Assembly (NCBI GenBank): GCA_963749975.1
Contig: CAVVOZ010000025.1
Span: forward strand, 1 to 64,000
DNA length: 64,000 nt
Direction of reading: 5' to 3'
From: an uncultured Candidatus Rokubacteria bacterium
GTDB lineage: Bacteria > Methylomirabilota > Methylomirabilia > Rokubacteriales > DASRDR01
A program made the position numbers and the translations under genes. Positions within the stretch are counted from its first letter, which is position 1. The number at the start of each line of letters is the position of its first letter. Positions 2,058-19,290 of this stretch are shown here, piece by piece. The notes beneath the pieces were generated by a model. That model was not told where the DNA came from. It was given only the letters and a program-made list of their open reading frames with translations, and searched no databases.

Positions 2058-3397
2058 GGCGTGCTATTATGCAGCTACACCAATGGCTCGCGGTGGGCGG
2101 GGTAGGTCTGTCGCCGGCCGTGTCCTGGCCGGCTTCGTCCTGGGGCTCGCGCTGGTCACGGCGGCCGGGGCGGAGACGGTCTCCACACTCGAGATCGACG
2201 GCGTCATCAGCCCCGTCACGGTTCGCCTGGTCTCCACGGCGATCGAGCGGGCGCGGGCCGACGGCGCCGCGGCACTGGTGATCCTCCTCGACACCCCCGG
2301 CGGGCTCGAGCGATCGATGCGCTCGATCGTCCGTGAGATGCTGAACTCCCCGGTGCCGGTGATCGTCTACGTGGCCCCCACCGGTGCCCGCGCGGCGTCG
2401 GCCGGCGCCTTCATCACGATCGCCGCCCACGTCGCCGCCATGGCGCCGGCCACCAACATCGGCGCCGCGCATCCCGTCGCTGCCGGCGGCGGGAGCATGG
2501 ACAAGGAGTCGATGCGGAAGGTGGAGAACGACGCGGCCGCCTCATCCGGAGCGTGGCGCGCGAGCGCGGGCGCAACCAGGACTGGGCGGAGAAGGCGGTG
2601 CGCTCCAGCGTGTCGGCCACCGAGCAGGAGGCGCTCAAGCTCGGGATCATCGACCTGGTCGCCGAGAGCCTCCCCAGCCTCCTGGAGAAGGTCGACGGCC
2701 GGCAGGTGAAGACGTCCCGGGGGGCGGTCACTCTCCACACGCGCGGGGCGACGGTCCAGGCCATCGCCGTCGGGTGGCGCGACCGGTTCCTCGCGCTCAT
2801 CACCGACCCGAACATCGCCTACATCCTGCTCATGCTCGGCATGCTGGGTCTCTTCTTCGAGCTCGCGAACCCGGGTGTCATCCTTCCGGCGCCATCGGCG
2901 GCATCTCGCTCATCCTCGCGTTCTTCGCCTTCCAGAGCCTGCCGATCAACTGGGCGGGACTCCTTCTCATCCTCTTCGGGATCGTGCTCCTGATCGCCGA
3001 GATCAAGGTCGTGAGCCACGGCGTCCTCACGATCGGCGGGATCATCGCGATCCTGCTCGGCTCGATGATGCTGGTGAACACGCCGGAGCTGCCGCTCCGC
3101 GTCGCGTGGACGGTGATCATCCCGGTGGTGGCGCTGACGGCGGGCATCTTCGTGTTCGCCGTCTCGGCCGGGGTGCGGGCCCAGATGCAGCGTCCCACGA
3201 CCGGCACGGCGGGGCTGCTCCACGCGACCGGCGTGGCGAAGACGCCGCTCGACCCGGAGGGTCAGGTGCTCGTCCAGGGGGAGCTGTGGACCGCGGTGGC
3301 GGACGCCCCGGGCATTCCCGCGGGCGAGCGCGTCCGCGTCGTCGGCGTCGATGGACTCAGGCTTCGGGTGGAGCGCGCGTCCGGCCCGCCGGCCTGA
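2056..3397 (+). CDS. NfeD-family membrane-bound ClpP-class serine protease (two frame corrections, near 2540 and 2880)
   Basis: It has a signal/TM N-terminus and a ClpP-like core (VILLDTPGG…[21 protein letters not shown]). The C-terminus has TM helices followed by an OB-fold ([31 protein letters not shown]). The pieces are spread over three frames. Confidence 0.75.
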
Positions 3398-4271: not shown

Positions 4272-6337
4272 GTGCCCTTGTCCGCCGCCGCGATCGCGCT
4301 CGGGGCGCTGCTCCTATTCGGGATCCAGCCGATCGTCGCCAAGCGGCTCCTGCCGTGGTTCGGCGGATCGGCGGCGGTGTGGATCACCTGCCTCGTCTTC
4401 TTCCAGACGGCGCTGCTCGCCGGTTACCTCTACGCGCACGCGCTCAACCGACGGCTCTCGGCGCGAGCGCAGTCCGCCGTCCACCTCGGCCCTGCTCCTG
4501 AGCCTGCCCGCGCTAGCCTGCTCCTCTGATGTCGAGCCCGCCCGCGCGCCTGGACGGCGCCCCGATGCTGGGCGTCCTGCGCCTCCTCGCGGTGACCATC
4601 GGCCTCCCGTACGTGCTGCTCGCCAGCACGAGCCCGCTCCTCCAGGCCTGGCTGGCGCGGCGGCCCGGCGCCGCCCTGCCGTACCGGCTCTACGCCCTGT
4701 CGAACCTTGGCTCGCTCGTGGCGCTCCTCGGCTATCCCGTCCTCGTCGAGCCGTTCGTCCCCTGGCACCGCCAGGCGCTCGGCTGGGCGGTGGCCTACGC
4801 GGACTTCGCCTGCTCTCGGCCGCGCCGCGCTGCGCGCGGCCAGGGGGACTGCGTCGATACCGTCCGCGGCGCCCACGCGGGACGATGCGGGGGAGGCCCC
4901 GCCGCACCGAGCCGGGCCGAGCGGAGTCTCTGGACCGGGCTGGCCGCCTGCGGGACCCTGCTCCTGCTGGCGGTGACGGCGCACATCACCCAGCAGATCG
5001 TGCCGGCGCCGCTCCTGTGGGTCGTCCCGCTCGGGGCGTACCTGCTGACCTTCGTGGTCTGCTTCGAGTGGCCGCGGCTCTACTGGAGGCCGCTCTGGAT
5101 CGGCCTGCTCCCGATCGCGCTCGTGGGCATCGCGTACCTGACGAGACAGGGGATCAACCAGCTCGCCGTGACGTGGCGGGTCGCCCTCTTCGTCGCCGGG
5201 CTGTTCGCCTGCTGCATGGTGTGCCATGGCGAGATCGCACGGCGCCGTCCGGGCGGGCGCCATCTCACGGCGTACTACCTCCTGATCGCGCTCGGCGGCG
5301 CGGTGGGGGGTCTGTTCGCGGGGGTGGCGGCGCCGCTCCTGTTCCGTCACCTGGTCGAGCTCCCGCTGGGCCTCATCCTGACCGGGCTGCTCGGGATGCT
5401 GGTGAGCCTCCAGGCCCTCTGGCCGAGGCTCGGGCGCCACGGGCGCCTCGTGGTGGTCGCCGTGCTCCCCTTCGCGCTCGGGCTGTACGCCACGTACGTC
5501 GTCGAAGGTGCCCGGGCCAGCACGCGAGCGTACCGGGTCGTGGTCCGGAGCTTCTACGGCCAGCTCGAGGTGCAGGACGACGGGGAGCCGGGGGACGAGA
5601 CTGCCTCGCGCACGCTCGTCCACGGCGGGATCATCCACGGCATCCAGTGGCGGGACGCCGCGCGGCGGCGATACCCGACGACCTACTACTGCGAGACGTC
5701 CGGCGTGGGCCGCGCCATCGCCCTCCTGCCGACGGATCGAGGGCGACGGGTCGGCGTCGTGGGCCTGGGAGCGGGCACCCTCGCCGTCTTCGGGCGTCCC
5801 GGCGACGTGTACCGGATCTACGAGATCAACCCGCTGGTGATCCAGCTCGCCGGGACCGAGTTCACGTACCTCCGGGAATCGGCGGCCGAGGTCGCCGTCC
5901 TGCTCGGCGACGCCCGGCGGCGGCTCGAAGAGGAGCCGCCCCAGGCGTTCGATCTCCTCGCCGTCGATGCGTTCTCGGGCGATTCCGTCCCCGCGCACCT
6001 CCTGACCCAGGAGGCGCTGGCGCTCTACGCGCGCCACCTGGCCCCAGGGGGAATTCTCGCCGTCCACGTCTCGAACCGATTCGTGGACTTCGATCCGGTC
6101 CTGGCCGCCGGAGCGCAGGCCCTCGGGCGCCCGGCGATCAACGTGCTCGGCGACCCATCCGAAGCCCGACGCTGCTACCACTCGCAGTGGATTCTCATCC
6201 CGCCGAGGGAGGGCCAGGCTCAATACTCGGCGCTCTGGCAGTTCGGCGCTCCGCTGGAGCCCAGGCCGGGATTCCGCCTGTGGACCGACGACCTCTGGAG
6301 CTTCTACCCCGTGCTTCTCGGCAAGGGTCACCGCTGA
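4272..6337 (+). CDS. membrane-fused spermidine/spermine synthase-like protein (polytopic N-terminus plus aminopropyltransferase-like C-terminus); frame change near 4500-4530
   Basis: The N-terminus, starting from GTG 4272, reads [32 protein letters not shown] 4529..6337 contains about 7 TM helices and then a SpeE-like domain ([12 protein letters not shown]…[10 protein letters not shown]…[23 protein letters not shown]…[13 protein letters not shown]). Confidence 0.7.
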
Positions 6338-6356
6338 CGCCGTTGCGGTTCGGGCG

Positions 6357-6388
6357 GCTCAGCCCGGGAGAGCGCTGGAATCGCACTC
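6357..6388 (+). repeat. partial copy of tRNA-Ala, D-arm through anticodon loop (32/32 identical to 7346..7377)
   Basis: gctcagcccgggagagcgctggaatcgcactc matches the intact tRNA exactly. The flanks do not form a tRNA. Confidence 0.65.
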
Positions 6389-6666
6389 TTTTCGCCGCGC
6401 GCCACCGACGCACCACAAATCCCTGTGCTGACAGGCGATTCGCGCACCATCCTCCAGGCGGTTGACGGCCTTGCCGAGCGGGTCATCCCCAACCTGAGAA
6501 CAGCGTCGAACCCCGAGTGTTACTGGTCGGACCTGGAGGCCTTATGGAAAACCACAACAGGGGGGCGCTGAGTCTTGCGGCCACGGTGACCGACTCCGTG
6601 GAGCAAAGCTGGCCCCGGTGACGCTCGCGCTGCGGATGGCGGCGGCGCTGGCGCTGGAGCTGTGAG

Positions 6667-6789
6667 CCGTCGAGGGTCCCGGCTACTCGTTGTCGACGGT
6701 CACCAGCCCGGCGTACTGGACTTCGCGCGCCAGGTCGTCCGGGGTCAGGACGTGCTCGATGCGCGGCGGCTCATAGGGTGGGGGGATCG
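6667..6789 (-). CDS. conserved 40-aa protein, copy 1 (MAETPSIPPPYEPPRIEHVLTPDDLAREVQYAGLVTVDNE)
   Basis: ATG has GGAGG upstream. It is homologous to the ORF at 14466..14588, with many synonymous third-position differences between copies. The upstream ~80 bp (…CCGTGATAGCCTGCCCCC…) is also conserved. Confidence 0.5.
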
Positions 6790-7336
6790 AGGGCGTCTCG
6801 GCCATGCGACGGTCCTCCGAGCGTGGGGTGGTCACGGGGGCAGGCTATCACGGTGTCGCGGCTCGGGCGAAGAGGAGAGACTGATGCGGAGCGTGTACCA
6901 GGCGAGGTCCGTCTGGTAGCTCAAGTACCGGGCGAACCACCGGCTCATCCGCGAGTCGAGCGGCTCGACGCAAGGAAGCCGACCCGAAGAGTCTCCTCAA
7001 GCGGCGCGACGGGGGGGGCCGGCCGGTGGTCCCCTGCGTCGAGAAGGTCACCTCGGCCAGTCTCGTCGACGGGCGGAAGGCGGTGTACGAGGCGAAGGGG
7101 CTCGCCTCACGCTCAGCCTCGCCCACACCGTCACGTCGGCGGCTGTCACGTGGACCGGCGCGCCGAGGTCCGAACACGTCTGCATCACGGCTCGCCAGGC
7201 GGCCAAGGCCGCCAACGCGACGATCAATCCTGAGCTCGCCGCGCTCAAGGACGCGTATGCCCTCGCGCTGGCAGCGGTGGTCGACGAATGGGCACAGTGG
7301 ACGAAATCCAGCGCGCCGTGTATCGTAACTCCGCGC

Positions 7337-7413
7337 GGGGGGTTAGCTCAGCCCGGGAGAGCGCTGGAATCGCACTCCAGAGGCCGAGGGTTCGAATCCC
7401 TTACCCTCCACCA
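7337..7413 (+). tRNA. tRNA-Ala (anticodon CGC)
   Basis: Cloverleaf read by hand: acceptor GGGGGGT/ACCCTCC with a G3:U70 Ala identity pair, U8 A9, and D-stem GCTC/GAGC. The anticodon stem CTGGA/TCCAG has loop ATCGCAC, giving anticodon CGC. The T-arm is GAGGG-TTCGAAT-CCCTT, followed by discriminator A and an encoded CCA. Confidence 0.85.
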
Positions 7414-7423
7414 CTTGTGACGC

Positions 7424-7452
7424 CGCCCCCGGGGCGGCGTTTCTTCATCGTG
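7424..7452 (+). terminator. GC-rich hairpin plus T-tract immediately 3' of the tRNA
   Basis: GACGCCGCCCCCGGGGCGGCGTTTCTTCAT. A second hairpin follows at about 7460-7495. Confidence 0.5.
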
Positions 7453-7639
7453 ACGGGCGGTTCCGGGGTGATCCTGGGGCCGCCCGTTACCGTCTGTATG
7501 GTGCCCACCGATGCCCACCGATGCCGGGGAATGTGGCAAAGACGGAGCAAAGACAACTCCGAGTACGGGCGTGGGGAGCCGGCTCCCGTAGGCCAGGCGA
7601 GCGCGCTGGGCGCTACCGGGCTAAGGCGACCGGCGGCGA

Positions 7640-7930
7640 GGCGCCGCGCGCCGTCGGGCCGACTTTTGGCCACGGCGCTCCCGGGCGCGCTGAGCGGCTG
7701 AGCACGCCTCGCTGCGGTAGACTTGCCGGCGCTTCGTGATGAACGCGCGGTCGGGAGCCCTGGCTGCTCCCCGACCATCCGGCAGCGCACGTTGCGGCAG
7801 AACCGCAGCCGGTAGCGCTCGCGCCAAAGCTCCCGGAGCGCCGTCAGGGTTTGGTGCTGGAAGCCTTCGGGCCACTTGAGCGCCCACGTGAAGAGCGTCT
7901 CGATGACGACCCCAATGACGTGGCGGAAGA
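7640..7930 (-). pseudogene. possible C-terminal remnant of a DDE transposase (IS4/IS5/IS701-like 'RWxIE..F..LK' region)
   Basis: The minus frame reads …RWAIFRHVIGVVIETLFTWALKWPEGFQHQTLTALRELWRERYRLRF…. Stops lie upstream and the fragment runs into the tRNA, so it is not intact. Confidence 0.25.
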
Positions 7931-8247
7931 TGGCCCATCTCGGCTTCGAACCGGTACGGGAAACCCGGTTCCCTGGCGGCGCGGTCTCGGGCCGCTTCTA
8001 CCGCATTCCTGTCAACCGGTTCGCGGGGGGCTGACGCGGGTCGGGACACCCCGCGTGCCGCCTCAGCGGCGACTCGTCGGGTTGCCCGGACGGGCCCACG
8101 ATGCTGCGTAGCCGTCAGAAAGATGGTCACCGAGGCAGTTCGACCAACGTCGGAGCCGGCGCGGTGGGCCACCCTCCCTCAGACAGGGGGCTCTGGCGGA
8201 TGACCGCCCCGCGTTTCACCGCCGGGTCCAGGTCTAGGCTCCAGAGG

Positions 8248-8499
8248 TCAAGACCCCATGCCCCGCTCTTGCTCGCAGAGGTAGAAGCACTCGACGTGCA
8301 GTCGCATGGGTGGCCGGCCCGCAGCGAGGGGCATCCCCTCGATCACCAGCTCGCCCTTGGCCATGACCCTATCGCAGGCGTCACAGGTTTCGCCGTGACC
8401 GGGCCTGCCCCAGACTCGGGGGATGCTCTGGCGCGGCAGCCGACCGTCCGAGAGCTTCTCACGAATGAGCTGAAGGGCTTGCGGGTGCATAGAGATCAC
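8248..8499 (-). CDS. hypothetical small Cys-containing protein (CDAC…HVECFYLC)
   Basis: 83-aa ORF with globular-looking composition. No family recognised. Confidence 0.35.
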   Translation of the reverse strand: MISMHPQALQLIREKLSDGRLPRQSIPRVWGRPGHGETCDACDRVMAKGELVIEGMPLAAGRPPMRLHVECFYLCEQERGMGS

Positions 8500-8754
8500 C
8501 TAGTCGGGTGCAGCCCGCGTGCCCGGACTCGTCCTCGGCCAGGTTCCGGCAAAGGATCATGGATTCAGCGATGCCTCCCCGCGTCCGCCAAGAAATCACC
8601 GCAGGGCGCGAGGGCAAATGCCCCTCCGCCGCAGGTCAAATGACCGAGCAACCGTCTGGCGCCGAAGGCGGGGGCTTGGTAGGGTCAGAACGGTCTCCAG
8701 CCGGGTCCCGGCGGAACCGGCACCGCTCTGGCCTCCGAGACGACGGAAGGATCC

Positions 8755-9251
8755 TATGAGGCTCGCCCGGCTCGCAGCCCCCGCCACCTTCGGCCCTGGC
8801 CTTCGTCGTCGCGCCGCTCGCTGTCGAGGCACAGACGCCGCAGCGAGTCTTCCGAATCGGGATGCTGAGTATGGCGGCCCGGCCTCCCGATATCTCAACG
8901 TACCCTCCGGGGTTCATCTCAGGACTACGAGCCCTCAGGTGGGTCGAGGGTCAGCACTACGTGCTGGAATACCGGTTTGCCGACGGAAGAGCCCGGTTGC
9001 CCGTCCTCGCTGCCGAACTAGTGGCTCTTCCCGTGGACGTGATCGTCGCTGTTTCGACTCCCACGGCGCTGGCCGCCAAGGCGGACGATCGGCGAATTCC
9101 CGAGCTATATGAACGTTGGTGGACTGCTCTACTACGGACCGAAGCCCGGGCAGGGTGTCGCGAGCACCGCGAGTCGGCAAGATTCTGCGAGGTGCCAAGC
9201 CAGCCGACCTGCCCGTCGAGCAACCCACGAAGTTCGAGCTGGTCATCAACC
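8755..9251 (+). pseudogene. ABC transporter substrate-binding protein remnant (5' part plus penultimate exon), with frameshifts and an internal deletion
   Basis: A signal peptide is followed by …RVFRIGMLS…LRALRWVEGQHYVLEYRFADGRARLPVLAAELVALPVDVIVAVSTPTALAAKA…. Then GKILRGAKPADLPVEQPTKFELVIN ends exactly at the intron 5' GTGCG. Confidence 0.55.
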
Positions 9252-11191
9252 GTGCGTCCAGAGAAAGCTGACGTGTTCAGCGGGAGTCAGTCCCGCCGGG
9301 GTAAGAGCCAGAGCCCCGTAACGCGGATGGCAGCGTGGAGGGGAACCGAGACGCTGAAGCCCATCGACCAAGCCCTCGGAAGGAGGGTGAGTGAGTCCCC
9401 GGGCCGTAACGAAAGTGAACGCAGAGGTGGCCCAGAAAGACTACAGCCCCGGAGGCCGAGCCCCATGGTTGAGAGGCGAAGGCCGCATGGCCCGTCGCAG
9501 CTGGCCGACGCGGCGGGACACTCCGGCGGGGTGAGAGCGACGGCACGGTGACGAGGACACGTCGAGCGACTGGAGAAGCCCTCCTCGCCCCACCGCGAAA
9601 GCGGCGGAGCCATGTCCAAGCTATAACCAGTGTCCCTGGGAAGTGGGCGGACGGCGAGAGGGTGGCGGACGGGTTCGCAGTAGCGGGGAAGCGGGGTAAT
9701 GCCCGTGGAGCGAAGGGGCCCGACTGGTCGGCACGTCCTCCGACAACATGGGAGGCAGGGGCGCCATGACAGCGGCGCCCATCAGTCTGCAAGACCTGAG
9801 GCGGAGGATCTACGTCAAGGCGAAGGCCGAGAAGCACTGGCGGTTCTGGGGCCTGTACGTCCATGTGGGCAAGCTGGAGACTCTGCGCGCGGCCTATGCG
9901 ATGGCCAAAGAGAACAACGGCGCCCCGGGCATCGATGGGGTGACGTTCGAGGCGATCGAGGACGCGGGCGTCGAAGGGTTTCTGGTGCAGCTCCGGGACG
10001 AACTGGTCACACGCACCTATCGGCCACTGCGGAACCGGCGCGTCGAGATTCCGAAGGGCGAGGGCAAGGTCCGCGTCCTGGGGATTCCGGCAATTCGGGA
10101 CCGGGTGGTCCAAGGGGCGCTCAAACTCATCGTGGAACCGATCTTCGAGGCGGACTTTCACGACGGGTCGTATGGGTATCGACCGAAGCGGACAGCCGCG
10201 CAGGCGGTCGACCGGGTGGCCGAGGCGATCGTGCGGAACAAGACGCGGGTGATCGATCTGGATTTGGCGGCCTTCTTCGACAGCGTGCGGCACGACATGC
10301 TGCTGGCGAAGGTGGCCCGGCGGGTCCAGGACGTCGAAATCCTGCACGTGTTGAAGCTGATCCTGAAAGCCTCCGGCAAGCGAGGAGTGCCTCAGGGCGG
10401 GGTGATTTCGCCCCTTCTCAGCAACGTGTACCTCACCGAGGTGGACGCGATGCTGGAGCGGGCGAAGGCCGTGGCACGGACCGGCGCACATGGGTACGTG
10501 GAGTACGCGCGCTGGGCCGACGACCTGGTGGTCCTCGTGAACAACGATCACCGGCAAGACTGGCTGGTGGAGGCGATACCCCGGCGACTCCGAGAAGAGT
10601 TCGCCAAGCTCGACCTGCAAGTGAACGAGGGGAAGAGTCGGATCGTGGACCTGAGTCGGGGGGAGAGCTTCGGATTCTTGGGCTTTGACTTCCGGCGCGT
10701 CCGCTCGCTGCGGGGGCGCTGGCGGCCGCAGTACATGCCGCAGCTGGCGAAGCGAACGGCGGTGCTGCGGAAGCTCAAGGCGGTGTTCCGGCGCTACGTC
10801 TCATGCTCGGTGGCGCGGGTGATCGCGGAGATCAATCCGATCCTCCGAGGGTGGGCCAACTACTTCCGGATCGGGCACGCGAGTCGGTGCTTTGGCTTCG
10901 TGCGCTGGTGGGTCGAGAAGCGGGTGCGGCGCCACATGATGCGGGCGAGGAATCGACGGGGCTTCGGCTGGACGAGGTGGAGTACGGCCTGGCTCTACGC
11001 CACGCTCGGGCTCTATGCGAACTACCGAGTGCGGTATGTGCCCCGGCCGGACAGTGCTCCCAGCCGATAGGTCGCATAACCCATGACGCGAAGCGATCAG
11101 GAAAGCCCGGTGCCGGAAATCGGCACGCCGGGTTTGATGCGGCGGGGGCTGGAAACGGGCCGACAGGTACCGCGCCAGTCCTCGACCCTAC
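9252..11191 (+). mobile_element. bacterial group II intron (about 1.94 kb) with the intron-encoded protein in domain IV
   Basis: The 5' end is GTGCG at 9252. The RT ORF lies at 9766-11070. A domain V-like hairpin, aAGCccggtgccggaaatcggcacgccggGttt, is at about 11103-11140. A D6-like hairpin has a bulged A at -7. The 3' end is …ccctAC. Exon 1 and exon 2 (at 12725) join in frame as FELVIN|LKTAK. Confidence 0.8.
9766..11070 (+). CDS. group II intron reverse transcriptase/maturase (no En domain evident)
   Basis: RT motifs are present: GIPAIRDRVVQ, YGYRPKRTAAQA, FFDSVRHDML, PQGGVISPLLSNVYL and YARWADDLVVL (the YADD box). A maturase X region follows (RGWANYFRIGHAS). Confidence 0.9.
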   Translation: MTAAPISLQDLRRRIYVKAKAEKHWRFWGLYVHVGKLETLRAAYAMAKENNGAPGIDGVTFEAIEDAGVEGFLVQLRDELVTRTYRPLRNRRVEIPKGEGKVRVLGIPAIRDRVVQGALKLIVEPIFEADFHDGSYGYRPKRTAAQAVDRVAEAIVRNKTRVIDLDLAAFFDSVRHDMLLAKVARRVQDVEILHVLKLILKASGKRGVPQGGVISPLLSNVYLTEVDAMLERAKAVARTGAHGYVEYARWADDLVVLVNNDHRQDWLVEAIPRRLREEFAKLDLQVNEGKSRIVDLSRGESFGFLGFDFRRVRSLRGRWRPQYMPQLAKRTAVLRKLKAVFRRYVSCSVARVIAEINPILRGWANYFRIGHASRCFGFVRWWVEKRVRRHMMRARNRRGFGWTRWSTAWLYATLGLYANYRVRYVPRPDSAPSR

Positions 11192-12724
11192 TGATATGGA
11201 AGGACCGGCGTCAAGCGGTGGCGTGAGGTCCGGACTTCTGGTCCGGGTGTCCAGTGTGTGGGACACAGTCCCGAGGGGGGCGGCGCCGAGACGATGAGGC
11301 GGCTTCGACGACGAATCACCCTGATATGCGCGGGTTGCCCCGAAGGGCCGAGCCGCATGACCGTGGTTCGTCGGGAGCTGCCTCCGTCTCAGGGAGCGCG
11401 AGTCGCCGGAGAGGGCGTCGCAGAGGTTGAGTCGAGGGCTCTCCAATCGTGCCTGCATCGTCCTGGCGCCGCCCGTCCTCGGGAAGCTCATGCAACTCTC
11501 AGTGGGGGAACGCGGGCCATTGCCTACGCCGCGACTCCCTGGGGGTCGACCCGGGTCATCACCGCCCAGAGAAAGCCGAGCAGTTCCCGGGCGACCGCGA
11601 CGACCGCGATGGGCGCCCGTTTGCCATGCCCGACGAGGTGCCGGTAGCGCCGATGGAGTCGCTGCTGGGCTTTCCAGGCGTGGGCCACGATCTCTCGGGG
11701 CTGGTGCTGGATGCGGAGGGCAATGGCGCGACCGAGGCGGGGACCGTGCCGATAGTGCCAGGCCGCTTCGACGAGGATCCGCCGCACGTGGGCGTTCCCA
11801 GCCTTGGTGATCCGGCCCTGGCGGTGGGTGTCGCCCGAGGAGTGCTCACTCGGCACCAGCCCCACGTAGGCCATGAGCTCGCGGGGCGTGCGGAACCGCC
11901 GGAAGTCCACGAGCTCGGCGAGGAGAATCATCGCGCCGAGCGTGTCGATGCCGCGGAAGCACCGCAGCCAGCCGACCGGCTCGCGGTACGGGGCGCGCTC
12001 GGCGAGGGCCTCGATCTCCCGGTCGAGCTCGGCCAGGCGCACTTGGGCCTGCTCGACGGCGAACAGCGTGGCGTCGAAGGTGCGCTGCAGCTCGGACAGG
12101 TCGAACCGCTGCGCCCGGAGCCACGTCCAGTGGGGCTGTCGCCAATGGGTGCCGGTGCGATAGACCCGACCATGCCGGAAGAGGAACTTGACGAGCCGAT
12201 GGCGCCAGCGCACGACATCCTCGCGGATGTCGTCCCGGCAGCGCAGGAGGTCCCGGACCGCTTCCTCGGCCTCGTTCGGCACATGGATCGGGGTGAGCTC
12301 GCCGGCGCGATAGAGCCGGACCAGCTTGGCTGCGTCGCGGCGATCCGTCTTGATCCGCTGCCCAGGGCGTCGCGGCGTCAGGGCTGGGGCGATCACATCG
12401 CACGGCACGCCGACGGCCGTGAGCTGCCGGTGCAGGTCGTAGCCGGACACGCCGGCCTCGTAGCAGACGCGGACCGGGCCCTCGCGCATGAGGCGCTCGA
12501 CGAGCCGGCGGAGGAGCCGCGGCTCGTTCGGGATCTGCCGCAGCTCCGGCTCGCGTTCCCCTGGCCGCAGGATCCCCGCGGTGATCGTCCGCTTGCTGTC
12601 ATCGAGGGCCACGTAGGTAGTATCCTTCTCCATGACCGGCCTCCTTTCGCCTGTGGCTCTGTTCTTCCCCCAAGGGGAACAACCCACGTATACGCGATAG
12701 GTAGGCCGGTCCTTCCATATGGTC
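11192..12724 (-). mobile_element. IS110-family (IS1111-like) insertion sequence, about 1.53 kb, abutting the intron 3' end
   Basis: A 16-bp perfect inverted repeat, ATATGGAAGGACCGGC, lies at 11194-11209 and as the reverse complement at 12705-12720. A DEDD transposase is encoded inside. The element sits between intron nt 11191 and exon-2 nt 12725. Confidence 0.7.
11524..12633 (-). CDS. IS110-family DEDD transposase
   Basis: The N-terminus reads MEKDTTYVALDDSKRTI (DEDD_Tnp_IS110 motif). The C-terminus has the transposase_20 region (…RFRTPRELMAYVGLVPSEHSSGDTHRQGRITKAGNAHVRRILVEAAW…). Confidence 0.85.
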   Translation of the reverse strand: MEKDTTYVALDDSKRTITAGILRPGEREPELRQIPNEPRLLRRLVERLMREGPVRVCYEAGVSGYDLHRQLTAVGVPCDVIAPALTPRRPGQRIKTDRRDAAKLVRLYRAGELTPIHVPNEAEEAVRDLLRCRDDIREDVVRWRHRLVKFLFRHGRVYRTGTHWRQPHWTWLRAQRFDLSELQRTFDATLFAVEQAQVRLAELDREIEALAERAPYREPVGWLRCFRGIDTLGAMILLAELVDFRRFRTPRELMAYVGLVPSEHSSGDTHRQGRITKAGNAHVRRILVEAAWHYRHGPRLGRAIALRIQHQPREIVAHAWKAQQRLHRRYRHLVGHGKRAPIAVVAVARELLGFLWAVMTRVDPQGVAA

Positions 12725-12786
12725 TCAAGACCGCGAAGACGCTCGGCCTCACCATCCCGCCCGTCGGTGTTGGCGCGGGCGGATGA
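12725..12786 (+). pseudogene. 3' exon of the ABC substrate-binding protein gene (…LKTAKTLGLTIPP-SVLARADEVIQ*), with a 1-nt frameshift
   Basis: It continues exon 1 in frame. The C-terminal motif matches the paralogous fragment at 15468..15884 (…[23 protein letters not shown]). Confidence 0.5.
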
Positions 12787-12827
12787 GGTGATCCAGTGAT
12801 CGGGCCGCTCATCCGCTGTCGTCTGGG

Positions 12828-13292
12828 GTGGACGCTGGTGGCGAGGACGACCGCGTGCGCCTGGTGATGGTCGGAGGCACTCGGAACGTCTGGGTCTGGC
12901 TCGAAGCGGAGACGGCGGAGGAGATGGTAGCCTTGCAGGCGTGTGCCGCCCGGGCAGAGTGGACAAACGGACGCGGGGCGGAGGCCATCGCAAGGCTCCG
13001 TGCCCTGGCGGAGCGATTAGGTTACCCGGTCAGGGACCCGAATCACCAGGTACGCCCGGTTCCGCCGTGTCTGGTCATCGTACGGCGTGGCGAGGGTGCC
13101 CTCTACGAGCGACTGACCACGATCGCGCGGGACAACGTCACGGTGGTCTGGGACCGACGCCAGAGCCAACGCCGGAGTGCGGATCGGCCGGCCGCGGCCG
13201 AGCGTCGACGGCAGGACCGGCGGCAGTCGCCGCCGCCCACGTGGGCCACGCTGGGCTTCCTCCTGGTGCAGTTCGAGGATGCGTCCCCATGA
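12828..13292 (+). CDS. hypothetical protein with an Arg-rich DRRxxxRR…ERR repeat tail
   Basis: …LVIVRRGEGALYERLTTIARDNVTVVWDRRQSQRRSADRPAAAERRRQDRRQSPPPTWATLGFLLVQ. It is a paralogue of 13437..13925. Confidence 0.5.
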   Translation: MDAGGEDDRVRLVMVGGTRNVWVWLEAETAEEMVALQACAARAEWTNGRGAEAIARLRALAERLGYPVRDPNHQVRPVPPCLVIVRRGEGALYERLTTIARDNVTVVWDRRQSQRRSADRPAAAERRRQDRRQSPPPTWATLGFLLVQFEDASP

Positions 13293-13436
13293 CCCCGCCC
13301 ATCTGGCTCGACGCCGCTCGCCGGCCGCGTCCCACGCGAGCCTGCTGGACCTGTGGCCGGGGGCCACGCTCGTCGGCGTCATTCTGGCCATGATCGTCCT
13401 CAAGTTGATGGACGTGGGCCGCTCGCGGGGGCGGAT

Positions 13437-13925
13437 GTGACGCCGGAGCGGCCGCGATGGGTGATCGTTGCCGAAGCGGATCGGCCAGAGACGTATCCGG
13501 TCCTCCGGCGCAACTTCGCCGGATCGGCCTGGGTCGACGTCGTCGTCGACCGACGCCAGGGGGAGCGACGTCAAGGCAGCCGCAGGCAGGCGCCGACGGG
13601 GGAGCGCCGCCTTGCCGGGCGCCGAAGTGTGGACCGGGACCCAGCGCAAGTGCCGCTCTTTCGCTTCGCCCATCAGGGGGACGGCTTTGCGGTCTACGAG
13701 GCCACCGCCCCCGTACCGGACCGATGTCCTCAGTGCGGCGCGATGGTGAGCGTGGAGATGCCGCGCTTCGCCGAGCCGCCGGTCCGGCTCGACCTCACCG
13801 TGGTGCATGAGCCGATACAGCCAGACCGCGCGCGTCACGTCGTCGACTTACAGACGTTCTCAGCGACCGGGCGAGTGCTGCTCGCCTCGCGGCTGTTCGT
13901 GCGGACCCGCACGGAGCCGCCGTGA
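13437..13925 (+). CDS. hypothetical protein, paralogue of 12828..13292 (VVVDRRQGERRQGSRRQ…ERR…RR), with a CPQC element
   Basis: GTG start. …WVIVAEADRPETYPVLRRNFAGSAWVDVVVDRRQGERRQGSRRQAPTGERRLAGRRS…CPQCGAMVSVEMP…. Confidence 0.5.
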   Translation: MTPERPRWVIVAEADRPETYPVLRRNFAGSAWVDVVVDRRQGERRQGSRRQAPTGERRLAGRRSVDRDPAQVPLFRFAHQGDGFAVYEATAPVPDRCPQCGAMVSVEMPRFAEPPVRLDLTVVHEPIQPDRARHVVDLQTFSATGRVLLASRLFVRTRTEPP

Positions 13926-14187
13926 TCCGAGCCGACCAGGTGGCTAACCTGCTGCGGCGGTCCGGGCCGCCCGAGCCGCACTGACGTCCATGGCGATCCG
14001 CCGGGTCCAGCGTCCACCCCACCCGATCGCGCTGGCCACGCCGTCCCTGGCGCTCTACGAGGTCGCACTCAGTGCGGTTCCCTCGCGGGTCTGGCGCACC
14101 GCCTTTCTCCGGCCCGCTGGTTAGCATTGGGTTTCGTCATTCTCGTTGCCGGGATGATTCACACTGCTGGAATGAACGGACGGGAAC

Positions 14188-14373
14188 CATGAAGCCATTC
14201 ACCCGGATTGCGGTGGTCGTGTTGTGGCTGATTGCGCTGCTGCAGCTCCTGCGGTTCATCGCGGGCTGGCAGATCACCTTGAACGGGCGCCCGTGCCGCT
14301 CTGGCTGAGCGGGCTCGTGGCGGTCGTCGCCGCCGGCTTGGCGATCATGGTCTGGCGGGAACGATCGCGGTAA
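14188..14373 (+). CDS. small two-TM membrane protein (needs a 1-nt correction near 14290)
   Basis: MKPFTRIAVVVLWLIALLQLLRFIAGWQITLNG, then in the +1 frame APVPLWLSGLVAVVAAGLAIMVWRERSR*. Confidence 0.3.
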   Translation, partial: HEAIHPDCGGRVVADCAAAAPAVHRGLADHLERAPVPLWLSGLVAVVAAGLAIMVWRERSR

Positions 14374-14465
14374 AGAACCAAGACGCCCCCGCGCGGTGCG
14401 CCAACACCGCCGGGGGCTGTTGCGCTGCGCCGCGGATGCAGGCGCTGGAGCTGTGAGGCTAGGTT

Positions 14466-14588
14466 GGCGGGGAGCCCGCATCTGTTGGCCCCGCGTAGAG
14501 GAATTCGCGCTCCAGATCCTCCGGTGTCAGGACGCGTTCGATGCGGGGCGGCTCGTAGGGTGGGGCGATCGGGGGCGTCTCGGCCATG
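14466..14588 (-). CDS. conserved 40-aa protein, copy 2 (MAETPPIAPPYEPPRIERVLTPEDLEREFLYAGPTDAGSPPT)
   Basis: GGAGG lies 9 nt upstream of the ATG. It is homologous to 6667..6789 and shares a conserved upstream region. It is divergent from the integrase fragment. Confidence 0.5.
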
Positions 14589-14669
14589 GGGGCGATCCTC
14601 CTGGAGGTGGGGTGGTTGGGGGCAGGTTATCACGGCGTCGCGGTTCGGGCGACGAGGGGAGGAGAGACG

Positions 14670-14912
14670 TCGGAGCTCCGGTCGCGCCAGTGGCGTCACG
14701 TTGACCTGGCGGCGGGCTGGATGCGCCTCGAGCCGGAGGAGACGAAGAATCGGGAGGGGCGGCAGTTTCCCCTGGTCCCTGAGCTCCGCACCGTCCTGGC
14801 GGCCCAGCGGGCTCGCGTGGAGGCGGTCCAGCGGGAGACCGGCCGCGTGGTGCCGTGGGTGTTCTGCCGCGACGACGGCGCCCCGGTCGGCGACTTCAGG
14901 ATGAGAACATGA
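14670..14912 (+). pseudogene. tyrosine recombinase (phage-type integrase) internal fragment
   Basis: [49 protein letters not shown]…[16 protein letters not shown] resembles the start of an integrase catalytic domain. The N-terminal domain and the C-terminal HxxR…Y region are absent. Confidence 0.7.
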
Positions 14913-15328
14913 AAAAGCCGGGCGCGAGCCAAGGCCAGTCGGCATCGGAGCTCATCTCGAAAAGAATCGCCGAACTCGGGGACTGGCGCGGGGAAACCCT
15001 CAGCAGAATGCGCAAGCTCATCAAGGAAGCAGACCCGGACGTCGTCGAGGAGTGGAAGTGGATGGGCACTCCGATTTGGTCGCACGACGGCATCATCTGC
15101 ACTGGCGAATCCTACAAGAATGTCGTGAAGCTTACCTTCGCCAAGGGCGCGTCTCTGAAGGATCCGGCCCGTCTCTTCAACTCGAGTCTCGACGGAAACG
15201 CACGCCGCGCGATCGACATCCACGAAGGAGAAGAAGTTGACGAGTCCGCCTTCAAGGCGCTCGTTCGCCAAGCGGTCGCCCTCAACAGTTCTGGCAAGTC
15301 GAAACCTTCGAAGAAAGCGAAGTCCTAG
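14909..15328 (+). CDS. DUF1801 (YdhG-like) domain protein; the gene is markedly lower in GC
   Basis: [86 protein letters not shown]…. It ends at the partial tRNA copy. Confidence 0.7.
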
Positions 15329-15332
15329 AAGC

Positions 15333-15378
15333 AATCGCACTCCAGAGGCCGAGGGTTCGAATCCCCGACCCTCTACCA
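15333..15378 (+). repeat. partial direct copy of the tRNA-Ala 3' portion (anticodon loop to CCA), an attR-like island boundary
   Basis: aatcgcactccagaggccgagggttcgaatccccgaccctctacca against tRNA 7368..7413 has 3 mismatches, all in the T-stem/acceptor region. A hairpin follows it (GGCCCTCAAGGGG…CCCTTGGGGCC). Confidence 0.65.
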
Positions 15379-15467: not shown

Positions 15468-15884
15468 TCACTGGATGATCTCGTCTGCGCGCTGCAGCAG
15501 CGACTGCGGGATTGCGAGCCGGAGCGCCTTCGCGGTCTTGATGACGAACTCGAACCTCGTCGGCTGCTCGATGGGGAGATCGCCAGGCTTCGCGCCATTG
15601 AGAATCCGGTCCACGTAGCTCCCGACGCGCCGGTAGAGATCCGCCTGATGTGCCCAGTAGGACATGAGGCCGCCGGCGTCCGTGAACGACCGCGTACCGT
15701 ACATGGCGGGCAGGCGATACTTGGCCGCGAGGTCTGCCAGCTGGGTTCGATGAAAGAAGCACAGCGGGTCTGCCACGCGGCACCCCTGACGTCGACACGG
15801 CCCGCGGTACGCCGACCTTGGCGTGCACCGGCTGGCCATCCAGCCGCACACGATGGAGGGATCCGCCATGGATGAGCTGATCAC
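15468..15884 (-). pseudogene. ABC transporter substrate-binding protein C-terminal fragment (paralogue of the 8755/12725 remnant)
   Basis: …[90 protein letters not shown]. The N-terminal part is missing. Confidence 0.6.
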
Positions 15885-16677: not shown

Positions 16678-17242
16678 TCATTCCAGCAGCGCGGTCACTG
16701 GCACACCGAGGGCTTTGGCCAGCGCGCTGATCGTGGTCAGGGACGAATCCTGCTCTCCCGCTTCCAGCTTGTTCACGTATTCGCGGGTCAGGCCTGGACC
16801 TCCTTGGTCAGGGCCGAGATGAGGCCCGAAACCGGGCCCGTCTCGGCTAGGGCTTGGGAGCGCGCTCCTGGAGTACGACCAAGGCGGTCGACAGCTCGAC
16901 GGCCGTCCATTCGAGGTCCTCGATCGGGACCGACAGGGTCGGCCGTACCGCGACGGGCCCGGTGCGGGCGAGCCGCTCCAGCATCTCCTGGGCATCGCGG
17001 ACCGCGTTGAGGACCCGGCGCAGGCGATCCACGGCGGCGGCGTGTCGCGAGAGGGGCGGTGGCGTGGACGCGAGTCGAACGAAGCGGGTGGTCAGCGGCA
17101 TTTGGCAGCCTCCACACGCGCCCCGAGGGTCGGAGCGCCATGCGAACGGAGGGGAGTACCCGAGCCAAATACCATGGGGGCCGTGACGTCCGGAACGTCT
17201 ACCCCGCGACCCCGTGGAAGGCACCTCCCAGTGTACGCTCAA
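16678..17242 (-). CDS. protein with a C-terminal XRE-family helix-turn-helix (needs frame corrections near 16850)
   Basis: The C-terminus reads …ISALTKEVQ-GLTREYVNKLEAGEQDSSLTTISALAKALGVPVTALLE (HTH_XRE). Upstream ORF 16847..17242 (…RRVLNAVRDAQEMLERLARTG…) is probably the same gene. Confidence 0.4.
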
Positions 17243-17294
17243 ACGGAGATGTCGGCACCCCAGGCCGTGACACCTCGAGCTCCGCGGTCACTCA

Positions 17295-18745
17295 TAAGTC
17301 TGGGTTACCCTCCGAGACCTGTCAGATCAGAAGTCAGGGTTACCAGGGGCCGGGGAGCGAGGGAGCCGCATGAGGGCGCGGGGCGTGGGTGTCGGGGGCG
17401 GTGAGGAGATCGGATCGGCGGGCCCGGGTGGCGGCGCGGGCCGCTGGGTGCCCGTAGGAGCGCGAGTTGGGCGCGAGGCCATATCGGGCTATCCCCCTGC
17501 CGAGGTGTTTTCCGGGCTGGTGGGTGGGACCGCCAAGGTCCAGAGGCGCTCCAAGGCGGCCTCGAGCTGACGGCGAAGATGCAGCGGGTTCAGGCGCTGA
17601 TACACCGCCTCGAGCTCCTGCCGACGCCGGGTGGAGAGCACGCCCGTCGCCCCGAGCCGCTGATACGGGGTGCGGGCGCGATCGTACACGCGATGCACGC
17701 GCGGGCCACGGCGCTCCTTGCGCACGAGCTGCTGGACCGGTTGGAAGAAGTTGATGTGCAGGCGCGCGAGGTCATACACGCGAGCGAGCTGGGCATAGGC
17801 GGCCTTGGAGGCGTAGCGATCATAGCCGATGAGGGGGCGGACGATGGCGCCGTTCTTCTGCTCGACATGGGCACTGTCGTTCTTCTGGTACGGGCGACTG
17901 CGGGTGAAGGTGATGCCCTCGCGCTGGCACCAGGCATACAGGTCGTGGTTGATGAACTCGGAGCCGTTGTCGCTGTCCAGGCCGCGCAGGGGGATCGGCA
18001 GGCGCTGGCGGACGTGGTGAATGGCGGTGCCGACCCGTTTCTGGCCCTTGCCCCAGACGGCTTGGAGGTCGACCCACGTGGTCGCGACATCGACGGCGCA
18101 GAGGGTGTAGAGGTAGAAGCCCTGGTGGTGGGGCCGCAGTGGGCGACCAGGTCCAGTTCGAGGAAGCCGGGCTGGGCGTCGGTCCACTCGGCGAAGGTGC
18201 GGACGGGGATCTGGTGCTTGAGCCAGGCGCCGGGGCGGGTCGTCGTGAGACCCCGGTGCGGCAGGGTGCGCCGAAAGGGCGCCAAGAGGCGGGCGAGGGT
18301 GGCGGGGCTGACCTGGCGCAGGTGCTTGTCGACTTCGGGCGTGACCCCCACGTCGCCACTCCGGGTCAGGCGATCGAGCAGCTCGGGGAGGAAGGGGTGC
18401 CAGCGGTGCGGGCCGATGTGGCCCGTGGCCTCGGAGAGGAGCTGGGCCGCGGCGGCCACGGCGGGGCCGTATCGGCGCGGGCGGCCCGAGCGGGGGCGAC
18501 TCGTGGCCGGGCGCAGCGGGCGCCGCAGCAGGCGGATGGCCGCCTTGCGATGCAGGCCCGGTGACCGCCACCACCTCGTTCAGCAGCCGGTGCTTCTCCG
18601 CCCGCGGGGCGCGCAGGTAGCGCTCCCGCTGCACGGCGGCATACTCCCGCAGACTGGCTCGGGTCACGGTCACCTCCTGGCTGGGGTTGGTAACCGTGAC
18701 TTTTGATGGAGCCCCCTCCGTTCGGTAACCGAAATTTTGATCCGA
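17295..18745 (-). mobile_element. insertion sequence with an rve-type DDE transposase (IS481/ISNCY-like), with doubled sub-terminal repeats
   Basis: The ends carry paired copies of an AAGTC(A/G)GGTTACC-type motif. At the left end, 17300-17345, these are taagtctgggttacc and gaagtcagggttacc. At the right end, 18695-18740, they are ggtaaccgtgacttttgat and ggtaaccgaaattttgat. The left and right copies are in inverted orientation. Confidence 0.55.
17489..18673 (-). CDS. DDE (integrase-core, rve) transposase, split over two frames (central part in ORF 17590..18459)
   Basis: The N-terminus has an HTH-like region (MTVTRASLREYAAVQRERYLRAPRAEKHRLLNEVVAVTG). The core reads …LCAVDVATTWVDLQAVWGKGQ…GLDSDNGSEFINHDLYAWCQREGITFTRSRPYQKNDSAHVEQKNG…. 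Confidence 0.75.
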   Translation of the reverse strand: MTVTRASLREYAAVQRERYLRAPRAEKHRLLNEVVAVTGPASQGGHPPAAAPAAPGHESPPLGPPAPIRPRRGRRGPAPLRGHGPHRPAPLAPLPPRAARSPDPEWRRGGHARSRQAPAPGQPRHPRPPLGALSAHPAAPGSHDDPPRRLAQAPDPRPHLRRVDRRPARLPRTGPGRPLRPHHQGFYLYTLCAVDVATTWVDLQAVWGKGQKRVGTAIHHVRQRLPIPLRGLDSDNGSEFINHDLYAWCQREGITFTRSRPYQKNDSAHVEQKNGAIVRPLIGYDRYASKAAYAQLARVYDLARLHINFFQPVQQLVRKERRGPRVHRVYDRARTPYQRLGATGVLSTRRRQELEAVYQRLNPLHLRRQLEAALERLWTLAVPPTSPENTSAGG

Positions 18746-18855
18746 TGCGGCCTCTGGCGCCCATCGCCGGCTTGCTGTAGGGTCGGGCGCGATCGCCCGC
18801 AGTCAGTTCTCCCGAGGCGGGCACCTCGCCACGTGCCAGACGACGGAGGACTTCA

Positions 18856-19290
18856 ATGAGGCTCGCCCAGCTCACGACCCTCACCGGCCTCGCCCTCGTC
18901 GGGTGTCTGCTACAGCCGTTCGTCGGGCCGGCCGTCGGCGAGGTGGATGTGGCCGCGTCCCTGACCGGACGCTGGGAAGGGGCGGCGGAGGTCCCGAGCC
19001 CCCAGTACCTGCCGACGCGGGTGCTGCTCATCAAGAACGTCGCTCGGGACGCGACGGCGCAGGGGATCGCCAAGTGGAAGGCGGACGGCGCCTACGGGGT
19101 CACGGCCGACAAGGTCGGCCGCGTCGACCTCGTCATCACGGTGGTGGAGCCCATGGTCACGGTCGAGTTCACGACGCCCTTGGCCCTCCACGCGACGCTG
19201 AAGCTCGTGAAGCCGAACGTGCTCGAGGGCACCCTCTCCGCCGGCGGCGGCGGGCGCGCCTATCGGATACACCTGGAGCGGCGCGAGTAA
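18856..19290 (+). CDS. hypothetical lipoprotein
   Basis: Signal peptide with a lipobox (LALVGC), then a globular domain. Confidence 0.6.
   Translation: MRLAQLTTLTGLALVGCLLQPFVGPAVGEVDVAASLTGRWEGAAEVPSPQYLPTRVLLIKNVARDATAQGIAKWKADGAYGVTADKVGRVDLVITVVEPMVTVEFTTPLALHATLKLVKPNVLEGTLSAGGGGRAYRIHLERRE

Follow-up and report, generated by a model that had tools for sequence, protein, structure and literature searches.

The window, a stretch of 64,000 nucleotides (nt) that represents positions 1 to 64,000 of contig CAVVOZ010000025.1 from an uncultured Candidatus Rokubacteria bacterium, contains a tRNA-Ala(CGC) gene with displaced pieces of its own sequence on both sides. Two related tyrosine-integrase elements were probably inserted from opposite sides into the anticodon-loop region of this gene, and both have since decayed. 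The downstream island is designated E_R (7368-15378). The stretch from 6357 to 7377 is read, by analogy to intact elements, as the approximately 1-kb remnant of a second element, E_L, which is of the 5'-half type and of opposite polarity, with 6357-6388 as its left attachment site (attL). Direct observations comprise the repeats, remnants of integrases with their orientation, a decay that differs between lineages, and the fact that both flanks of the tRNA are homologous to internal sequence of intact elements bounded by repeats. Related loci are referred to by L numbers.

The tRNA gene and its partial copies

The only tRNA called in the window by ARAGORN is the tRNA-Ala(CGC) gene at 7337-7413 on the plus strand, and Rfam concurred with 62.8 bits. 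As revealed by blastn within the window, the sequence at 15333-15378 (plus strand) agrees with the 3' end of the gene (7368-7413) in 43 of 46 positions through the CCA (E=7e-14), and that at 6357-6388 (plus strand) is identical to 7346-7377 in all 32 positions (E=1e-10). In linear tRNA numbering, the 5' piece comprises positions 10-41, ends at C41, and is located upstream of and co-oriented with the gene, while the 3' piece comprises positions 32-77, begins at A32, and lies co-oriented downstream. Within the intact gene, positions 10-41 are the E_L repeat and positions 32-77 the E_R repeat. The two outer pieces overlap by the 10 nt AATCGCACTC, composed of A32, the 7-nt anticodon loop (33-39), and T40-C41, and this overlap marks the shared crossover zone. 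Positions 1-9 of the tRNA and the native promoter are absent from the 5' piece. Judged from the intact analogues, the outer pieces would be the two halves of the original host tRNA gene, with the 3' piece as the right attachment site (attR) of E_R. A preliminary description of this DNA, made from the letters and a list of their open reading frames, had listed the intact gene, the 46-nt 3' copy with three mismatches, and the third piece with its 10-nt overlap with the right repeat, and all of these were recovered by the programs.

The same three tRNA pieces are present in the same order and at the same relative positions in L001 (ENA ERZ25039492), an independent assembly that is 93 to 98% identical to the window, which makes an assembly artefact very unlikely. 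The 3' copy in L001 matches the tRNA in 44 of 46 positions and differs from that of the window at one base, a difference that indicates neutral decay of real DNA. An origin of the 3' piece as a chimera had been considered because its T-stem is unpaired, and this was dropped since L001 differs at one of the three mismatches and neutral decay suffices. The tRNA gene itself is 100% identical in L001, L005, L006, and L008.

Probable remnants of two integrase elements and their intact relatives

An intact 3'-half analogue of E_R is found in L093, where a tRNA-Val(CAC) gene at 3226-3301 is followed by a 7.2-kb island. A perfect 45-nt repeat of tRNA-Val positions 32-76, from the first loop base to the CCA, is located there 34 nt past the integrase stop codon; the 3' repeat of the window begins 1 nt 5' of the 7-nt anticodon loop, and that of L093 at the first loop base. 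The island is ordered as tRNA-Val, a stretch 70% identical to window positions 7343-7555, small minus-strand open reading frames (ORFs), a gene for a substrate-binding protein (SBP), an HTH_3 gene, and an outward-reading integrase. The intact SBP gene occupies the same relative place as the SBP pseudogene of the window. The proposal that the repeats are the attL and attR of an integrase-inserted island is upheld by this locus, which shares with the window the architecture, an integrase of 83% identity, and a homologous tRNA-side arm, and possesses the perfect 45-nt repeat.

The tRNA-side arm (P' arm) of E_R at 7414-7570 on the plus strand, with a terminator-like hairpin at 7420-7440, is homologous to the arms of L093 and L094, with 70% identity over 224 nt to the sequence just 3' of the tRNA-Val gene in L093 and 78% to L094. 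Since the P' arm is homologous to the inside of the L093 island, the sequence directly 3' of the window tRNA is element DNA. A motif search yielded the candidate arm-type sites GTGGCAAAGAC (7533-7543) and GGAGCAAAGAC (7544-7554) on the plus strand of this arm. GTGGCAAAGAC is located approximately 120 nt 3' of the tRNA in the window (7533), L001, L093, and L094, in L005 and L008 with one mismatch, and two further copies immediately precede the right repeat of L093. This is consistent with GTGGCAAAGAC representing candidate arm-type integrase sites on both arms of attP, the attachment site of the circular element, and GGGCACAAT may be named beside it as a further candidate arm site.

The integrase of E_R, int_R, is present in the interval 7337-15378 only as an internal fragment of 77 codons at 14669-14901 on the plus strand, corresponding to integrase residues ~194-269 and lacking the catalytic residues; the tyrosine-recombinase fragment reported in the preliminary description thus exists, at these coordinates. 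Its DNA is 83% identical to L093 and 82% to L094, its protein sequence is 56% identical to P0008, the 345-amino-acid (aa) full-length integrase of L008, and the closest database proteins include one with PF00589. Approximately 450 nt were deleted from the N-terminal part, the junction at window positions 14668 / 14669 corresponding to 9457 / 9907 in L093, and the catalytic C-terminal part from 14902 on is replaced by a DUF1801 gene. This gene encodes 139 aa, is located at 14909-15328 on the plus strand between the truncated int_R and the right repeat, and matches Pfam PF08818 with E=1e-22, in a stretch of 59% GC (0.59), just as the preliminary description had it with a low-GC DUF1801 gene. A copy of 92% identity resides in L008 at 18683-19119 on the minus strand, at a different locus and in opposite orientation, and the homology extends from about 12 nt before the ATG to the stop codon only, which resembles the behaviour of a cassette.

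On the other side of the tRNA, a second integrase pseudogene, int_L, occupies 6884-7277 of the plus strand. Six-frame translation and tblastn revealed residues 1 to ~146 of a tyrosine integrase fused to the last few codons, with an in-frame TAG at 6917-6919 and additional frameshifts; the frame from the ATG at 6884 reads MRSVYQARSVW*LKYRANHRLIRESSGS...ATINPELAALKDAYALA, toward the tRNA. The pseudogene aligns from its start codon with P0008 at 72% DNA identity, in agreement with tblastn, and P0008 itself matches PF00589 and the PHROG 1 integrase. L001 retains the complementary residues ~207-345 of int_L, including HDLRR and the IYRRY tyrosine, which end 60 nt before the tRNA and are 93% identical to P0008 at the amino-acid level, and L005 retains yet another subset. 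Because the lineages possess different remnants, a full-length int_L that read into the tRNA was probably present in a recent common ancestor and was cut down independently in each lineage. The neighbouring 258 nt at 6389-6646, the interior of E_L, are conserved in L001 and absent from L005 and L006; neither an ORF nor a family match was found in them. The preliminary description had attributed the third tRNA piece to "serial integrations or rearrangements" at the same tRNA. This wording was too vague: the piece is read as the far end of a second element of opposite polarity, and both the mechanism and int_L with its start at 6884 were missed, as were the integrase pseudogene's position directly upstream of the tRNA and a duplicated module of 174 nt described below.

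Intact counterparts of E_L carry the 5' half of a tRNA gene. In L009 (a JGI contig), the left flank of which, NfeD-Band_7, is 78% identical to that of the window, a perfect 41-nt repeat from tRNA position -1 to loop+2 is located at 5917-5957 and 12138-12178, the second copy being inside a tRNA-Ala(CGC) gene. This repeat ends with ...AATCGCACTC, at the same tRNA position as window position 6388, and the 6.2-kb block between contains small genes including HTH_3, with a full-length integrase of 77% identity to P0008 as the last substantial gene, directed toward the tRNA. In L013, a perfect 40-nt repeat of tRNA-Leu(TAG) positions 1-40 is combined with an integrase at 6867-7886 and the tRNA at 7980. 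With the 5' half of the tRNA, elements of the L009/L013 type must also bring the promoter of the gene. In accord with this arrangement, 7290-7336 (plus strand) is interpreted as an element-type tRNA promoter and integrase-side arm (P arm) of E_L: the 47 nt 5' of the tRNA in the window, L001, L005, L006, and L008 align with the integrase-proximal, element-borne attR side of L009. They do not align with the displaced native promoter of L009, with which they share only -35/-10-like boxes. Neither of the outer tRNA pieces is present in L005; in L008 the int_L-type integrase is intact, and a 3' piece is missing from the sequence within reach.

The catalytic C-terminal region of a tyrosine recombinase (R..HxxR..Y, PF00589) is retained by neither int_L nor int_R of the window; they are non-functional remnants of PF00589 tyrosine recombinases. 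Because neither integrase is intact, both elements are immobile relics. The damage to int_R is common to the window and L001, that to int_L is specific to the lineage, and mismatches to the tRNA exist only in the 3' piece, which suggests that E_R died earlier.

To judge the geometry of this integrase family, an alignment of 23 full-length relatives was used for a survey, which retrieved 80 metagenome loci. In about 40 of them a tRNA is located downstream of the integrase stop codon, usually at a distance of 55 to 200 nt and in a few cases up to 1.1 kb. The tRNA is convergent with the integrase in 27 of these ~40 loci (Phe, Leu-CAA/TAA, Ser, Lys, Cys, and Asp) and co-directional in 13 (Leu-TAG, Thr, Arg, Asp, and Ala-CGC). 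Most of the loci without a tRNA call contain a convergent remnant of the T-arm and CCA, and two (L045 and L093) a co-directional 3' remnant. All these geometries within one integrase clade fit a symmetric anticodon stem-loop core. Williams reportedly described in 2002 such a sublocation class, with crossover in the anticodon loop and a symmetric anticodon stem-loop core. Across L013-L092, the orientation follows the identity of the tRNA, and Asp alone occurs in both orientations.

The 174-nt module occurs twice in the window, at 6706-6879 and 14488-14661, with 84% identity between the copies and each of them upstream of a tRNA piece. The left copy comprises a small ORF, a divergent intergenic region, and the ribosome-binding site of the integrase, the ATG of which follows at 6884; the right end of the right copy (14650-14668) matches the sequence just 5' of the integrase start in L093, and both copies end at the Shine-Dalgarno-like GGAGAGAC. 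The small ORF, on the minus strand and divergent from the respective integrase, encodes 40 aa in the left copy (6683-6805, MAETPSIPPPYEPPRIEHVLTPDDLAREVQYAGLVTVDNE) and 42 aa in the right copy (14459-14587), with the consensus MAETP.I.PPYEPPRIE.VLTP.DL.RE..YAG. The window, L001, and L005 together contain five copies, and 22 of 39 substitutions are at third codon positions, a bias that suggests a real, uncharacterised small gene. No match to the module ORF was found in Pfam, NCBIfam, or PHROG. For this reason its assignment as a leader of a lasso peptide or another ribosomally synthesized and post-translationally modified peptide was dropped. An excisionase on the plus strand of the module was ruled out since stop codons break every plus frame. 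The 84% identity suggests that one side was later copied onto, or exchanged with, the other, for example by gene conversion.

The 17-mer GGCGCTGGAGCTGTGAG is located at 6650-6666 and 14441-14457 in the window, at 9720-9736 in L008, and at 1141-1157 in L094, approximately 220 to 270 nt upstream of the integrase start and conserved in both element types. A role as a regulatory site is conceivable, as is an origin from the end of an upstream gene that has been lost. A short frame, MIAA[IV]Y[TA]R[KR]ST..., resembles the N terminus of a serine recombinase and is located in L093 at ~9400-9460, where it overlaps the integrase via a TGATG stop/start, and in L005 at ~5400-5460, left of the small ORF. 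This frame could be a relic or a leader ORF.

Proposed course of the insertions, alternatives, and comparison with known islands

From these observations we infer the recombination events, their order, and the nature of the tRNA gene as a composite of a 5' part from E_L and a 3' part from E_R. The attP site of E_R (~7368-15378) would have borne the 3' half of the tRNA from the anticodon loop to the CCA, the terminator, and an arm with the GTGGCAAAGAC sites. Insertion would have rebuilt the tRNA at the left end and pushed the host 3' half 8 kb downstream to 15333-15378, which would then have been located just past the outward-reading integrase of E_R. Subsequently, the 150 N-terminal codons of int_R would have been lost and its catalytic C terminus replaced by the DUF1801 gene, and the SBP cargo would have decayed and received a group II intron and an element of the IS110 family. 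E_L (6357-7377) would be of the mirror type, with an attP that bore the promoter and the 5' half of the tRNA downstream of the integrase, so that after insertion the integrase would read into the rebuilt tRNA and the host 5' half would be displaced upstream to 6357-6388. A later deletion of positions 1-9 and of the native promoter has to be assumed, and about 1 kb with the small divergent ORF and int_L would have been left. The predicted circle junctions are ...DUF1801-AAGC-AATCGCACTC-CAGAGG...ACCA-CTTGTGACGCC for E_R and integrase-promoter-GGGGGGTTAGCTC...AATCGCACTC-TTTTCGCC for E_L.

Both flanks of the tRNA are of the element type and both crossovers were in the anticodon loop, which indicates that the gene in its present form is probably a reconstruction from two elements, whatever the order. 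In a more far-reaching version, mobile elements would have supplied the whole of the present tRNA-Ala(CGC) gene in this Rokubacteria lineage: one of them would have contributed the promoter with the 5' half, the other the 3' half with the terminator, the host halves would be relics 9 kb apart, and a single integrase clade would be able to switch the tRNA half and the orientation owing to the symmetric anticodon stem-loop core. For this version the chances appear to be even.

Evaluation of the two-element explanation needs to consider several points that weigh against it. The 5' piece lacks positions 1-9 and any promoter, so that an extra deletion is required. The duplicated module is not present in the intact analogues, and its E_L and E_R copies, at 84% identity, are closer to each other than the respective integrases are. 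The DUF1801 gene occupies the very place expected for the P arm of E_R, and the explanation does not account for where this gene came from. Family searches found no mobility or phage genes in the cargo. An empty site, which the preliminary description had proposed to look for in relatives with a tag gene as left neighbour, was not found in L001, L005, L006, L008, or L009; in every relative recovered, L005, L006, and L008 among them, the tRNA is already flanked on either side by sequence of the element type, and the left neighbour turned out to be a fused MFS (major facilitator superfamily)/spermidine-synthase gene instead of tag. The insertion is therefore deduced from the analogues and not seen directly. 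Finally, several of the comparison contigs and perhaps the window may be from long-read assemblies, so that small frameshifts should not be over-read, while the large deletions are robust.

Some loci had been examined as possible counterparts of this region. L006 was rejected as an empty site of the right island because its downstream genes are not syntenic with the right flank of the window. The L006 segment between the MFS gene and the tRNA was not confirmed by Pfam as a PDZ fragment and has no detectable integrase homology. L002 and L003, the contexts of weaker integrase-fragment matches, possess no tRNA and no synteny. An 18/20 match of 6337-6356 to the module tail was taken as chance and not as a third module copy, the L001 version being far less similar.

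Alternatively, a single classic island at 7368-15378 may be assumed, with the upstream piece, the left module, and the left integrase derived by local duplication or rearrangement of the right end. The small-ORF modules, 84% identical and absent from intact elements elsewhere, agree with this assumption insofar as sequence was exchanged between the sides. The integrases, however, are different paralogues, int_R with ~56% protein identity to P0008 and 83% DNA identity to the L093 type, while the pieces of int_L match the L008/L009 type and have no match to L093 or L094. Moreover, in the geometry of integrase, promoter, and tRNA and in the place where the 5' repeat ends, the window is like the intact elements L009 and L013, and a duplication of the right end would have produced a 3' piece and not a 5' piece, which makes a single island quite improbable. 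A composite circle of ~8.9 kb with its own tRNA-Ala could also have split an ancestral tRNA in one insertion via the 10-nt core AATCGCACTC, with a predicted junction of ...DUF1801-AAGC-AATCGCACTC-TTTTCGCC... This would explain why the outer pieces overlap by exactly this core and would join as positions 10-77, and why the intact tRNA is inside the interval between them. The joined sequence would nevertheless lack the 5' acceptor stem, the intact analogues L009, L013, and L093 are separate and each bounded by a tRNA and a single half-repeat, and the subsets of the structure in L005 and L008 fit independent histories of the two sides, so that such a circle is likewise quite improbable. That the partial copies are chance matches or assembly artefacts can be virtually dismissed: a general caution about metagenome assemblies is all that speaks for it, against the blastn E-values of 7e-14 and 1e-10, the three pieces in place in the 93 to 98% identical L001 assembly, and the single-base divergence of the two 3' copies, as expected for real DNA.

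The two-element explanation combines known kinds of islands. Among the 3,919 islands listed in Islander (PMC4383910), the displaced fragment is of the 3' kind in 3,760 and of the 5' kind, a known minority, in 159; 125 tandem cases are also recorded. E_R resembles the classic 3'-fragment islands, the 'A' sites of Islander (PMC4383910), in that an intact tRNA is combined with a co-oriented 3' copy from the anticodon loop to the CCA, a remnant of a tyrosine integrase is inside near one end, and the island restores the tRNA. Unlike most of its family, in which the integrase is convergent with and beside the intact tRNA (27 of ~40 loci), the integrase of E_R is at the far end and reads outward. Unlike in the classic islands, only the 77-codon fragment remains, DUF1801 has taken the place of both the P arm and the catalytic part, and no mobility genes are left. 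E_L shares with the 5'-fragment islands (Islander, PMC4383910) a co-oriented piece of the tRNA 5' half upstream, an integrase reading into the rebuilt tRNA, and a promoter and 5' half from the element, but with its ~1 kb, an internal piece (10-41), and a pseudogene it would be rejected by the internal-fragment and 2-kb length filters of Islander. As in tandem island arrays (Islander, PMC4383910), more than one integration by related integrases probably occurred at the same tRNA; unlike in these arrays, E_L and E_R are on opposite sides of the tRNA and use opposite halves, so that the displaced pieces are a 5' and a 3' piece with the intact gene in the centre. Both kinds of islands being already known, the locus is an example of known biology and not of a new mechanism.

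At this locus the history of a tRNA hotspot can be read from the sequence, and the anticodon-loop overlap of the two displaced half-genes shows where the crossover zone lies. Islands with 5' fragments, mostly filtered out or under-reported by standard finders, are regular in this soil integrase clade, with 13 of ~40 loci being co-directional. For annotation, this is a warning: the end of a real element can lie where the remnant of an integrase precedes a tRNA and an internal 5' fragment of a tRNA is also present. A classic-type island at the same tRNA species is also found in another phylum: in a Myxococcota metagenome-assembled genome (JAVEVO010000038; L004 975-1021 and L007 7466-7541), a tRNA-Ala(CGC) gene and a perfect 47-nt copy of its 3' half are on the same contig, with an integrase-like ORF convergent with the tRNA.

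Cargo of E_R and flanks of the locus

The minus strand downstream of the P' arm (7621-8499) contains two hypothetical ORFs of 183 aa (7621-8172) and 83 aa (8248-8499), with no family matches. The 83-aa ORF belongs to a small repeated family, which occurs twice in L008 (4042-4299 and 4431-4661) with 73 to 81% DNA identity, and three small minus-strand ORFs are found at the equivalent place of the L093 island. The SBP pseudogene, of the ABC_sub_bind type, was delimited by tblastn with the intact SBPs of L093 and L001. Its 5' part at 8793-9251 (plus strand) has an internal deletion and is broken at 9251 / 9252, and its 3' end resumes at ...LKTAKTLGLTIPP... and occupies 12724-12796 (plus strand), as judged by tblastn and from the junction in L001.

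The pseudogene is interrupted at ...ELVIN / LKTAK... by a group II intron in sense orientation (9252-11195, plus strand, 3' end approximate), as determined by Rfam, Pfam, and comparison of the junction with L001. The following features of a group II intron are present: the ribozyme domains, with D1-D4 at 9278-9414 and D5/D6 at 11101-11191, a reverse transcriptase (RT)/maturase ORF at 9748-11070, and the GUGCG 5' end (GTGCG at 9252). The scores were 112.8 bits for RF02003 and 38 bits for RF00029, the latter slightly under the gathering score of 40, and RVT_1 and GIIM are present in the protein. Between D5/D6 and the 3' junction, an insertion sequence (IS) element of the IS110 family is located on the minus strand at 11200-12723 (left boundary approximate), with the Pfam domains DEDD_Tnp_IS110 and Transposase_20. 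The entire block 9252-12723 of intron and IS110 element (3.47 kb) is absent from L001, which indicates a recent insertion. It is followed by degenerate cargo at 12797-14437, 98.6% identical to L001 and with no recognisable domains.

The preliminary description had named most of this content. Its SBP pseudogene, intron, and IS element were borne out by tblastn, by Rfam with the RT/maturase domains, and by the IS110 Pfam match, respectively. None of the ORFs examined yielded a DDE transposase remnant, and the Arg-rich proteins may most simply be explained as wrong-frame readings of DNA with 70% GC.

In the right flank, a C-terminal SBP fragment at 15471-15776 on the minus strand is 94% identical in tblastn to an intact SBP of L001. 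It was truncated by a 1.6-kb deletion relative to L001 (at ~15777; L001 11064-12690), and the DNA lost in the window held the N-terminal two thirds of this SBP and a Bac_luciferase-like gene. The region 17281-18752 (1.47 kb) is absent from L001 and may be another insertion; a 433-aa stop-to-stop ORF in it (17405-18706) has no Pfam match. Outside the island, a partial HTH_3 gene at 16678-16995 on the minus strand has 87% DNA identity to the HTH_3 gene of the L093 island, in inverted orientation, which hints at a further element remnant beyond attR.

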